From Planctomycetota bacterium (lineage in GTDB: Bacteria > Planctomycetota > UBA1135 > UBA2386): a stretch of 29,967 bases of DNA. The DNA lies in assembly GCA_947501605.1 (NCBI GenBank), contig CANMWZ010000045.1:1-29967 (forward strand), written 5' to 3'. Position numbers and translations under genes: made by a program. Positions 1 to 16,367 of the stretch are shown here, piece after piece (the stretch's first letter is position 1; every line of letters begins with the position of its first letter). The notes under the pieces were generated by a model. That model was not told the DNA's origin. It made no database searches and saw only the letters and a program-made list of their open reading frames with translations.

Positions 1-62
1 GGGGCTCTCAGACCATCCGCGCGCAGAGTGGGATGGTCGTCGTGGCTGTCGGGTCTGAGAGC
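1..62 (-). repeat. Dispersed oriIS-like element, copy A (3' end runs off the window edge)
   Basis: Reverse complement ctctcagacccgacagccacgacgaccatcccactctgcgcgcggatggtctgagagcccc aligns without gaps to 6788-6848 (43/61 by hand count) and closely to 11066-11109 and 7036-7075. Contains an 11-bp inverted repeat (4-14/52-62) and an 8-bp one (11-18/31-38). Confidence 0.75.
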
Positions 63-142
63 TCGCCTCCCTCGATCGCCGCAGACGTCGGGGCGGCTGC
101 TGTCGAGCAGAGCTTCTCCGAGTGGTCGCGCTGGGTAGAGAG

Positions 143-463
143 CGTCACCACCCGATCCTGCGCCAGCGAGAAGATCTGGAACCCACCCGAGTCGGTGAGG
201 ATTCCCCGCTCCCAGCCCATGAACCGATGCAGCCCCCCGAGCTGCCGCATCGCCTCGGGCCCCCGCCGCAACGCGAGGGGATACGCATTGCCGACGATCA
301 TCTCCGCGCCGAGCTCGCGCAGTTCCTACGCCGTGAGCCCCGTGACGGAGGCTCGTGTGCCCACCGGCATGAATGCGGGAGTCTGGATCACGCCGTGGGC
401 CGTGGTGATGCAGCCAGCGCGCGCTTGGCCATCGGTGGCCTGGACCGAGAACGTGAGCGGCAC
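143..463 (-). pseudogene. tgt: Queuine tRNA-ribosyltransferase, 5' fragment with in-frame stop
   Basis: GTG at 463, then [33 protein letters not shown] at 326-328, then in frame [39 protein letters not shown]. Similarity ends after DRVVT (~143), about 107 codons of a ~370-aa enzyme. Confidence 0.9.
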
Positions 464-5969: not shown

Positions 5970-6156
5970 AGGTCGACCTGCGCCCAGCCGCACTCCACCC
6001 GAGCGCGCGTAGCTGCGCGCTGCCCTTTCGGCCGTTCGCATGCCCCCCCACGGGAATCCCGCCGCGCTTGTCCAATCCGACCCGGCCCGGGTCATGACCG
6101 GACGTCGACGCATCGCGGCCCTCCTTCCGGGCCCCACGTCGAGAGCAGGATCCGCC

Positions 6157-6717
6157 GTGCATGCCTTCCCCGACCTCATCCGTTCCGTCGCCCTTCTAGC
6201 CGCCATTGCGCCCCTCGCCGCCCAGACGACCGGGGTCGCCGGCATCAACGACTACACCGTGAACGGCGTCGCGCCAGGATCGTCGTCCTGCCCGCAGGTG
6301 TGCATCCCGACGCCCGGGATCATCACGATGAACGTCAACACGGTGCCTGGGGCCTTCGTCGTGATCGTGTTCACCGACTGCCCGTGTCGCGGTTGCGCGA
6401 TCCCGTGGGCGGCCAATGCGTGCACGCCGGCGATCCCGAACGGCATCTTCCCGGCGTGCTCGACCACCAACCAGTCGATCGACTTCTTCCCGATCCCTGG
6501 CTGCAACGTCATCTGGTCGGGAACGGCCATCGCCACGGCTGCCGGCCAGGCCACCATCCTGCTCCCGGTCCCACTCATTGCCATCGGCACCGTGCCGTGC
6601 AGCACGTTCCAGATGTTCTCGACGCAGGCCATCGTGTTCGATCCGTGCGGGCTCGGCGGGGTCCCGATCGGCCCCGGGCCGTTCGTGCTGACGCAGGCCT
6701 ACGACGTGACGTTCTGA
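6157..6717 (+). CDS. Cys-rich exported hypothetical protein
   Basis: GTG at 6157 preceded by AGGA. Signal-peptide-like VALLAAIAPLAA|Q, strong GC3 codon bias, 10 Cys in 186 aa. Confidence 0.75.
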   Translation: MHAFPDLIRSVALLAAIAPLAAQTTGVAGINDYTVNGVAPGSSSCPQVCIPTPGIITMNVNTVPGAFVVIVFTDCPCRGCAIPWAANACTPAIPNGIFPACSTTNQSIDFFPIPGCNVIWSGTAIATAAGQATILLPVPLIAIGTVPCSTFQMFSTQAIVFDPCGLGGVPIGPGPFVLTQAYDVTF

Positions 6718-6787
6718 GTGCGTTCCAGGTGACGCGCGAGCGCTACCGGGGGGTGGAGCCTCGCGCGCACGCGATCCGCAGCGGCCA

Positions 6788-6863
6788 CTCTCGGATCCGA
6801 ACTCCATGACTGCCATACCGCTCGGCCCTCGGGTCGTCCGGGAGCACCGTTGGACCTCCTATC
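6788..6863 (+). repeat. Dispersed oriIS-like element, copy B (ends CCGTTGGACCTCCTATC)
   Basis: Gapless 42/58 match of 6805-6862 to 11066-11123 and 43/61 to copy A. Stem ctctcggat (6788-6796) / gtccgggag (6836-6844). Confidence 0.7.
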
Positions 6864-7035
6864 GCGGTCCTGAATCTCGCGGGCGCGACGCGCCTCAGCG
6901 CAGGCTCTCGATGCGACCCGTGGCGTCAACGATCAGGGTGACGAAGGTCGAGGGCAAGCAGCGGAGTCTCGACGGAATCCGCAGATTCCGCTGAGCGCGA
7001 CGCAGCCATCGGTCTTCAAGCTGGCCGCAGCCGCT

Positions 7036-7075
7036 GGAACTCCAAAGAGGCTCCAGACCATCCGCGAGCAGAGTG
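7036..7075 (-). repeat. Dispersed oriIS-like element, copy C (3' part only)
   Basis: Reverse complement cactctgctcgcggatggtctggagcctctttggagttcc. 7054-7075 matches 9-30 at 21/22, and ctttggagttcc is shared with copy D. Confidence 0.75.
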
Positions 7076-7128
7076 CGGCGGCCGCGGCAATTCGGGCAGG
7101 TCAACACCTCAATGAGGTAGACGCGGCG
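7063..7128 (-). mobile_element. IS91/ISCR-like transposase C-terminal remnant
   Basis: Translates as RRVYLIEVLTCPNCRGRRTLLA, matching from memory the LRRVF.IDVL.CP.CGG.R..LA C-terminal CxxC segment of IS91-family transposases. Fused directly to repeat copy C. Confidence 0.65.
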
Positions 7129-7185
7129 GCGGAAGTGCTATGGATGGGCGCCGGGCGCAGACGAGTGCCACCCAAACACAGATTC

Positions 7186-7878
7186 ATGACCCACCAACCA
7201 CTGCGCCGTTCGTTCCTCCGGATCGCGATCGCATTCCTTGCGATGACCGCACTGGTCGCGATCGCAACCGTGCTGTCGGGCGGCATGAGCGAGACCCAAG
7301 GCCGCATCCTCGCGACATCCGCGACGATCTCGCTAGCCAGCGTCTGCGCTATGGCCTGCGCCGCCTTCCTCGAACGCGGTCGCTTGCCCTCGCTCGCCTA
7401 CGTCGGCATGGCACTCGCGTTCACGGCAGCGGCCCTGATGATCTTCGGCATCTGGTTGCAGCTCACAGTCCTCGGCAGCGAGGCATTCTGGAAGTCCGTC
7501 TTCCTCTGCACGCTGTGGGCGGTCGCGTTCGCCCACGGACAGCTGTTGTGCCTGCCGACGCTCTCGAAGTCTCACCGTTGGACCCAAGGTGCTTCAGTCG
7601 CGTGCATCACCACGTTGGGCCTGCTCGGTTCGATCGCGGTCGTGTTCGAACCCCATGGCGACTTGCTGCCGCGGCTCATGGTCACGCTCGCGATCCTGAT
7701 CGCCCTGTTGACGCTCGTCGTGCCGATCCTCGCCAAACTGCGATCGGGCCACGAAGGCACGGACGGCGAACCTCACAGTGCCTCGGATCGCCTCGTCCTC
7801 GTGCGCGGCGGCGACGGCGTGTTCCGCGACTCGCTCGGACAGCGCTACCGCGTCGAGCGAGTCAGCGAAGAGAGCTAG
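7186..7878 (+). CDS. Multi-pass membrane hypothetical protein
   Basis: About six hydrophobic segments and a short soluble tail; ATG at 7186; biased codon usage. Confidence 0.75.
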   Translation: MTHQPLRRSFLRIAIAFLAMTALVAIATVLSGGMSETQGRILATSATISLASVCAMACAAFLERGRLPSLAYVGMALAFTAAALMIFGIWLQLTVLGSEAFWKSVFLCTLWAVAFAHGQLLCLPTLSKSHRWTQGASVACITTLGLLGSIAVVFEPHGDLLPRLMVTLAILIALLTLVVPILAKLRSGHEGTDGEPHSASDRLVLVRGGDGVFRDSLGQRYRVERVSEES

Positions 7879-8009
7879 CGGGGCGGGCGTCGCAGCGGCT
7901 GCGCGATCGCGTCGTGCCGCCGCCATTGCTGCCTGACGATGGCGATGGCGGTTGCGACCACCATGGCCAACGCGAACGCCACCGCTCGCAGGCTTCGAGT
8001 TCGTCCCAC
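7875..8009 (-). CDS. Possible 44-aa single-TM small protein
   Basis: GTG 8009 to TAG 7875: MGRTRSLRAVAFALAMVVATAIAIVRQQWRRHDAIAQPLRRPPR. Hydrophobic core flanked by Arg; no clear RBS. Confidence 0.3.
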   Translation of the reverse strand: MGRTRSLRAVAFALAMVVATAIAIVRQQWRRHDAIAQPLRRPPR

Positions 8010-8067
8010 GGTCGCGCGCTGCGGCCGTCAGGTCGGAGCCATCGAAGTTCGGTAGGTCTTCGCGCGC

Positions 8068-11065: not shown

Positions 11066-11123
11066 CACGACTACTATCTCGCTCTGCGCGCGGATGGTCC
11101 GAGAGCGCCTTTGGAGTTCCGAT
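11066..11123 (+). repeat. Dispersed oriIS-like element, copy D
   Basis: cacgactactatctcgctctgcgcgcggatggtccgagagcgcctttggagttccgat aligns gaplessly to copies A and B and near-identically to copy C. Confidence 0.75.
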
Positions 11124-11153
11124 GGCGCTACGAAGGTCGGTTGCGCACCTGCG

Positions 11154-16081: not shown

Positions 16082-16367
16082 GCCACGATCAGGCCACGGC
16101 AATGCCCCGCGCGCCATGGGCTATCAGCCGGTCTCGCGATGCGAAGGTGTTCACCAAGGCCCTCGACACTTGGGAACTGCATCCTCAGCAGAGCACTCTC
16201 GCTTCGACGGCCGCCAGCGAAGGCGCTCCCTGCAGGCCACGTCGCGGACCCAACCACCACGACCACCCGCCCGCTCGGTGCTCGGGTCAGCCGGGAGCCA
16301 TGATGCTCTTCGTACAGGTCCGCCGGCTGACCGTCGCCATCGCCGCTCGAAGCCCTAGCATGACCCT

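Follow-up and report, generated by a model that had tools for sequence, protein, structure and literature searches.

The capture of resistance genes in clinical proteobacteria is what ISCR elements are chiefly known for. For the better-described element IS91, the literature holds that its oriIS starts rolling-circle copying, that failed termination moves the adjacent DNA along with the element, and that the last 82 bp of IS91 are enough for transposition when the enzyme is provided in trans (PMC13181058). A similar account is given for the approximately 100-bp origin of ISCR1, whose 22-bp end is quoted there (PMC13023784), and according to another account no ISCR element with demonstrated transposition existed as of 2018 (PMC6218425). 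Remnant copies in which an extra oriIS flanks a captured gene are reported for ISCR28 (PMC12772301, citing Yuan 2024). Neither solo oriIS mini-copies nor ISCR elements of Planctomycetota came up in our literature search, which covered mostly non-subscription work and is therefore weak evidence on this point.

Here we consider a group of short dispersed repeats in a stretch of 29,967 nucleotides (the window) from a Planctomycetota bacterium; the window makes up contig C45 in full, from a genome of 4.65 Mb that is 91% complete, and its DNA is present in lake-water and freshwater-sediment runs. Very probably, the repeats are 5'-truncated 3' non-coding ends, likely oriIS, of an ISCR-type IS91-family transposase gene. 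The basis for calling them oriIS is their homology to the DNA directly past a transposase stop codon, their fixed 3' border and ragged 5' borders, and a covarying hairpin. The main inference of a preliminary description, that these are oriIS-derived pieces of IS91/ISCR elements, is borne out by additional copies, by transposase ends lying upstream of them, by the end motif and by the lack of an Rfam match. The unity that its term "element family" conveys is overstated: the ragged 5' ends, which give lengths from about 60 to 960 nt in this genome, mark the copies as derived from a single element end by truncation and deletion, and not as a unit bounded on both sides.

Sequence inspection and BLAST both place the four copies originally listed at 1-62 (A, minus strand), 6788-6863 (B, plus strand), 7036-7075 (C, minus strand) and 11066-11123 (D, plus strand), and the gapless identities (A-B 43/61, B-D 42/58, A/C core 21/22) were reproduced exactly. 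None of 1500 random genome segments scored as high as either the A-B or the B-D gapless comparison (null maxima 32 and 30). When local scores are compared with 20000 random segments, none reaches those of A-D, A-C, C-D and B-D, two reach that of A-B, and 1949 reach that of B-C, which is not significant as a pair; five of the six copy pairs thus lie beyond nearly all random segments, B-C being the exception. A held-out profile built only from ten copies on other contigs recognized B (E 1.4e-11), A (2.8e-11), D (3.7e-5) and C (0.066), together with a fifth, weaker copy (E, 16195-16299; E 3e-4) that had been absent from the original list; the best match of this profile on the reversed genome had an E-value of 0.46. 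The size first proposed, about 60-80 bp, proved too short, as A covers approximately 1-156, B 6765-6866, and C 7031-7128 if its transposase part is included.

An intact end was seen in the window only in copy B (6765-6866, plus strand), a solo oriIS stub with a hairpin at 6826-6844 (loop 6833-6837), an unbroken TT-N6-CCTA motif and its CCTA at 6858-6861; the family model described below finds it at E 9.6e-8, with B among its training sequences. Copy A (1-156, minus strand; profile match 156-2) is a stub truncated by the contig end about 13 nt short of the CCTA motif, and it is 77% identical over 1-133 to a transposase-linked end in G041, a genome from another genus of the family. Its flank is formed by the 5' fragment of a second tgt gene (116-427, minus strand; PF01702 positions 2-110; one internal TAG), which reads into copy A and is not part of the element. 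Since this fragment is truncated and only 51% identical to the intact tgt of the genome on contig C31, it is probably foreign DNA that was cut by copy A. Copy D (11066-11128, plus strand) is the shortest stub and carries CCGA in place of CCTA, and in copy E (16195-16299, plus strand), a diverged stub, the terminal motif is gone; they match the G041 end with 86% (E 2.4e-14) and 71% (E 3.2e-6) identity, respectively.

Copy C combines an oriIS part with a damaged end motif (7031-7075, minus strand; 87% identical to D over 39 nt; family model E 0.0014, with C outside the training set) and a transposase C-terminal remnant of 22 codons (7063-7128, minus strand), whose amino-acid sequence is 86% identical to the transposase on contig C55 of the same genome (E 1.7e-5). 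The two parts are joined in line at a short sequence common to the transposase gene and the origin region, with a loss of about 308 nt of element sequence. An internal fragment of the same transposase gene lies at 7897-8022 on the plus strand, opposite to copy C, with 72% amino-acid identity (E 4e-13) and 81-85% DNA identity to the copies on contigs C55 and C66. The copies lie between unrelated genes, but to call them all intergenic needs correction, because C begins within a remnant of the transposase gene and there is an overlap between A and the end of the tgt fragment.

Short fragments form a mosaic in the 170 nt that separate copy B from copy C. A 50-nt piece at 6892-6941 (minus strand) is 86% identical to C18:26487-26536, which presumably resembles the end of a fliN-type gene. 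The segment at 6941-7037 (plus strand), within which copy C ends, is an internal fragment of a second dispersed repeat of about 140 nt at full length, a MITE-like sequence that ends in inverted repeats and is often bordered by CTAG; a profile of this repeat gives 53 matches at E<1e-3 in the genome, seven of which are its seeds. Upstream of copy B, at 6040-6717 (plus strand), there is an unannotated 225-codon gene without a Pfam match, paralogues of which are found on C41 (78% DNA identity) and C64 (72%).

BLAST and nhmmer searches of the same genome revealed 11 more copies on five other contigs, which themselves seeded the nhmmer model, and one further copy, on C85, was recognized by the family model. 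With the window counted, seven contigs carry copies, and those besides the window (six) amount together to about 72 kb. All have a common 3' end point, and their upstream reach varies (approximately 140, 220, 235, 255, 350-370 and 960 nt). The longest copy continues into a transposase gene, of which it includes the 3' half (C55:11399-10674; PF04986, 59 bits) and whose stop codon lies about 225 nt ahead of the motif of the repeat, and other copies have 140-370 nt of this upstream DNA from C55 in common, with the identical end point. On C52, a fragment matching PF14319 (68 bits) is located upstream of a copy, and a deletion join resembling that of copy C is present at C52:3913. The check proposed earlier, to look for transposases upstream of the repeat, thus shows that a transposase gene ends directly upstream of the longer copies, and the search for further copies found many more in the genome and its relatives. 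The PF14319 zinc finger and PF04986 are both linked to the element, separately in the C52 and C55 fragments and jointly in an intact relative (L054), and the window itself contains remnants only. Between the five same-facing origins on C55 (locus L004) the cargo includes HicA/HicB, an ECF-type sigma factor, carboxypeptidase-regulatory-repeat proteins and a beta-propeller protein.

In the 91%-complete assembly, where contigs C66 and C85 end inside transposase DNA, an intact ISCR-type transposase is missing, and the source enzyme is therefore assumed. An intact IS91-family gene on C10 is unlikely to be this source: it belongs to a different subfamily (416 bits on the IS91 model, 35 on the ISCR model), and the family model finds no end adjoining it. 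The C10 locus (L001; C10:488-2599) comprises a tyrosine recombinase followed by this intact transposase, and beyond the latter a long imperfect palindrome and a tRNA-like sequence.

The connection between end and enzyme extends to relatives. The C55 protein matches 69 of the 91 genomes of the family, and in G041 a transposase tail is followed by an intact end of the subfamily represented in the window, the one that matches copies A, D and E. The intact relative L054 (genome G007) has a 554-codon frame that is 36-38% identical to the transposases of ISCR1 and ISVsa3 and contains the zinc finger, an HFH motif and the tyrosine within LCRY; with 365 bits on the model for ISCR clade Ia (NF052416, cut-off 925) and 79 bits on that for IS91 (cut-off 125), it is ISCR-like and stands outside ISCR clade Ia. 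Among 36 transposase C-terminal matches examined in relatives, a set in which a few elements are counted twice, 23 have TT-N6/7-CCTA 160-195 nt past the stop codon (background in random windows, 1.5%), eight have no motif and five no stop codon within reach. Although this pattern was drawn up after part of those sequences had been seen, it also fits the independently read ends of ISCR1, ISVsa3 and IS91 taken from plasmids, which answers positively the comparison with known IS91 ends that had been proposed at the outset.

The position of the 3' border can be read from near-identical copies, which share CCTA plus 5 nt and then diverge at 10 of 15 ends in G104 and 13 of 16 in G062; no fixed tetranucleotide follows CCTA+5 among these copies, and the border is fixed at 5-6 nt past CCTA. 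A family model built by sequence only from 29 ends has matches in 50 of the 91 genomes (up to 43 among 61 candidates scored per genome), the genomes that supplied training sequences matching by construction. In individual genomes matches to the origin outnumber those to the transposase (16 versus 1 in G067, 43 versus 8 in G057). Among 84 ends at hand-picked loci, a transposase remnant lies within 420 nt in 40, none was detected in 32 by this test, which overlooks small remnants, and 12 reach a sequence edge; some solo ends in relatives keep only 40-80 nt. Simpler searches recovered little: BLAST with copy B alone had hits in 0 of 40 relatives, a result attributable to the divergence of the end beyond the reach of BLAST, an exact-pattern scan gave one match among genome contigs (on the G041 contig) and none among metagenome contigs, and a protein scan gave two short fragments. 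A short second origin or duplicated end was observed directly behind the first one at L060:5306-5405 and L064:2583-2640, and downstream of the transposase in L018, as though origin junctions were re-used.

That the stubs might form an ordered, integron-like capture array, in which the transposase cuts at two same-facing origins, excises the intervening genes as a circle and builds head-to-tail cassettes by reinserting it at another origin, concerns their organisation and not their identity. We consider this unlikely, even though several arrangements speak for it. On each of C55 (five origin ends), C66 (two) and C52 (two), all ends have a common orientation and are spaced at 1.7-7 kb, 36 of 39 neighbouring pairs at the hand-picked loci are co-oriented, a short second origin lies directly behind the first one both in L060 and in a plasmid-borne ISCR, and a two-origin "sandwich" is described for ISCR28 (PMC12772301). 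The set of 39 pairs was, however, picked by eye from lists that showed the strands, and when all 127 hits of five genomes were taken without selection, co-orientation held for only 23 of 37 neighbouring pairs (p 0.19), a count that leaves out the six hits falling on flanks in the empty-site test. One of the four neighbouring pairs in the window is co-oriented, the genes between stubs lie on both strands, and no cassette was seen to be common to two arrays. Clustering of the stubs is evident, with 65 of the 127 hits sharing a contig; a consistent order is not.

A further alternative, in part carried along in the preliminary description, holds that the repeat is a small structured RNA or a regulatory leader kept for a function of its own; it is highly improbable. 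The stem singled out in that description does show a real A-T to G-C change between A and B, but no covariation across the 15 copies in the genome, where 72% of its cells are paired and 231 of 500 shuffles reach its covariation score; a second stem in the same 15 copies (ACCATCC/GGATGGT) is 82% paired, again without covariation. The conserved structure is instead a short subterminal hairpin ahead of the motif. Chosen by RNAalifold, it has 89% of its cells paired and no covariation in the 15 genome copies; in 29 sequences from across the family, 117 of 174 cells are Watson-Crick pairs as opposed to 98.8 in shuffles (0 of 5000 as high), with exchanges between C-G, T-A and G-C, and the 22 relatives alone have 87 such cells against 72.9 (3 of 5000), shuffles of this kind ignoring relatedness. 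Copy D folds better than shuffled sequences on both strands (z -2.5 and -2.8), as a structured transcript might, but copy B and three copies from C55 and C78 do not (z -0.7 to +1.0). Transcription could start inside the end, since 19 of 49 distinct ends from relatives have a -35-like TTGAC/TGGAC box some 70 nt ahead of CCTA (2.4% in shuffles), with a -10-like hexamer 17-19 nt after it. This box, however, faces outward into the next gene, as do the POUT promoters of ISCR1 (PMC6218425), and it is to be regarded as a candidate outward promoter by its sequence; it is degenerate in the copies of the window, and a sigma-70 scan of positions 6600-7300 gave no site. No Rfam family matches the window at the gathering score, and ragged 5' ends that run into transposase coding DNA are likewise at odds with a structured RNA. 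The reading of the repeats as integron attC sites between gene cassettes, suggested by their imperfectly palindromic, intergenic position between unrelated genes and by a GTTRRRY in copy B, can be excluded, since R boxes are missing (GTTRRRY and RYYYAAC each occur in one of 15 copies, never both together), no integron integrase over the cut-off is encoded in the genome (best score 113.7 bits versus 265), and the copies, which occur in both orientations, continue into DNA of the transposase gene.

If the repeats are truncated transposon ends, as we conclude, a plausible sequence of events can be proposed for their formation from the biology of IS91. An HUH transposase would recognize the hairpin in its single-stranded form and nick adjacent to CCTA, after which rolling-circle copying would proceed toward the upstream DNA. 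An early stop of copying, which we infer from the combination of a fixed 3' border with ragged 5' borders, would then leave at a new site no more than the terminal tens to hundreds of bases. Existing copies are shortened by deletion where short sequences are shared, as the joins of copy C and C52:3913 show. If its end is intact, a stub could move once more, together with its upstream DNA, with the help of a transposase made elsewhere, and repeated movement of this kind might give rise to patchwork islands where stubs cluster.

In four sequencing runs, one of which may be the source sample, near-identical contigs cover the window. They span copies B, C, D and E with nothing altered but single bases, and none shows an empty site; for one stub of a relative, no matching flanks of an empty site were found either. 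In four same-genus genomes the best match to the helicase of the window is 38-39%, so they offer no syntenic locus for comparison. Since no stub has an empty site as its counterpart, each solo copy could also be the product of deletion followed by decay where it stands. At 13 junctions, all of them occupied sites, no terminal inverted repeat and no duplication were seen, and no terIS-like or common 5' junction was found among the truncated copies. Copy A behaves differently in one run (X3), where a 168-nt contig spanning 1-149 and 19 nt past the window has a depth of 30.5 compared with 12.2 in the adjoining DNA; by alignment, these 19 nt end at CCTA+6. The contigs of X6 and X9 are interrupted at this same upstream point, and those of X7 at the same downstream one. 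The pattern fits a second identical copy or alternative neighbours, and the assembly contains no second copy of this unit. Copy A may have been copied recently, the multi-copy contig being only a hint. Judging by damaged or missing ends in C, D and E, most stubs of the window look dead, and copy B is intact as far as its sequence goes. The further-reaching possibility that enzyme-less oriIS stubs of 40-170 nt are active minimal rolling-circle elements, which carry upstream DNA and gene fragments, bring an outward promoter and so drive the assembly of accessory islands, strikes us as conceivable but rather doubtful.

The stubs are very probably decayed oriIS ends of an ISCR-like clade without a prior description, an ordinary kind of mobile-element remnant. 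The value for the window itself is modest, as an unannotated repeat is explained and the region is marked as a patchwork of accessory DNA. The clade, on the other hand, offers dozens of natural ends per genome together with intact enzymes for testing, and comparison alone fixes the border at CCTA plus 5-6 nt, the conserved hairpin and the candidate outward promoter.

Set against known systems, the ends resemble those of IS91, IS1294 and IS801 in that an oriIS downstream of the gene terminates in CCTA plus 5 nt and is preceded by subterminal palindromes; in IS91 the CAAG target follows directly. Those elements have a defined terIS and a tetranucleotide target (CTTG/GTTC); here the truncated copies showed no terIS and the near-identical ends no fixed tetranucleotide, and the transposase of the intact relative scores far below the cut-off of the IS91 model. 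In eukaryotes, non-autonomous Helitron derivatives have rolling-circle element ends with a subterminal hairpin that persist without the enzyme beside captured gene fragments. Mobile oriIS stubs would make a bacterial counterpart of these, a likeness that we put forward tentatively and as analogy only, since both the enzyme family and the hosts are different. The closest resemblance is to the ISCR elements (ISCR1, ISCR2/ISVsa3, ISCR28), which share with the intact relative a one-tyrosine HUH transposase with a zinc finger at 36-38% identity, about 170-230 nt of non-coding DNA past the stop codon (CCTA follows after 223 nt in ISCR1 and 226 nt in ISVsa3), a border of TT-N6-CCTA plus 5 nt without a fixed tetranucleotide thereafter, and 5'-truncated copies beside accessory genes with a candidate outward promoter. 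In contrast to these elements, the Planctomycetota ends belong to a separate clade with its own short hairpin with a GTGGT loop, whose family model has no match to the ends of ISCR1 or ISVsa3 at E 0.05; they reside in accessory DNA in which no link to resistance genes or integrons was seen, and stubs of 40-100 nt are common among them, reaching up to dozens per genome.
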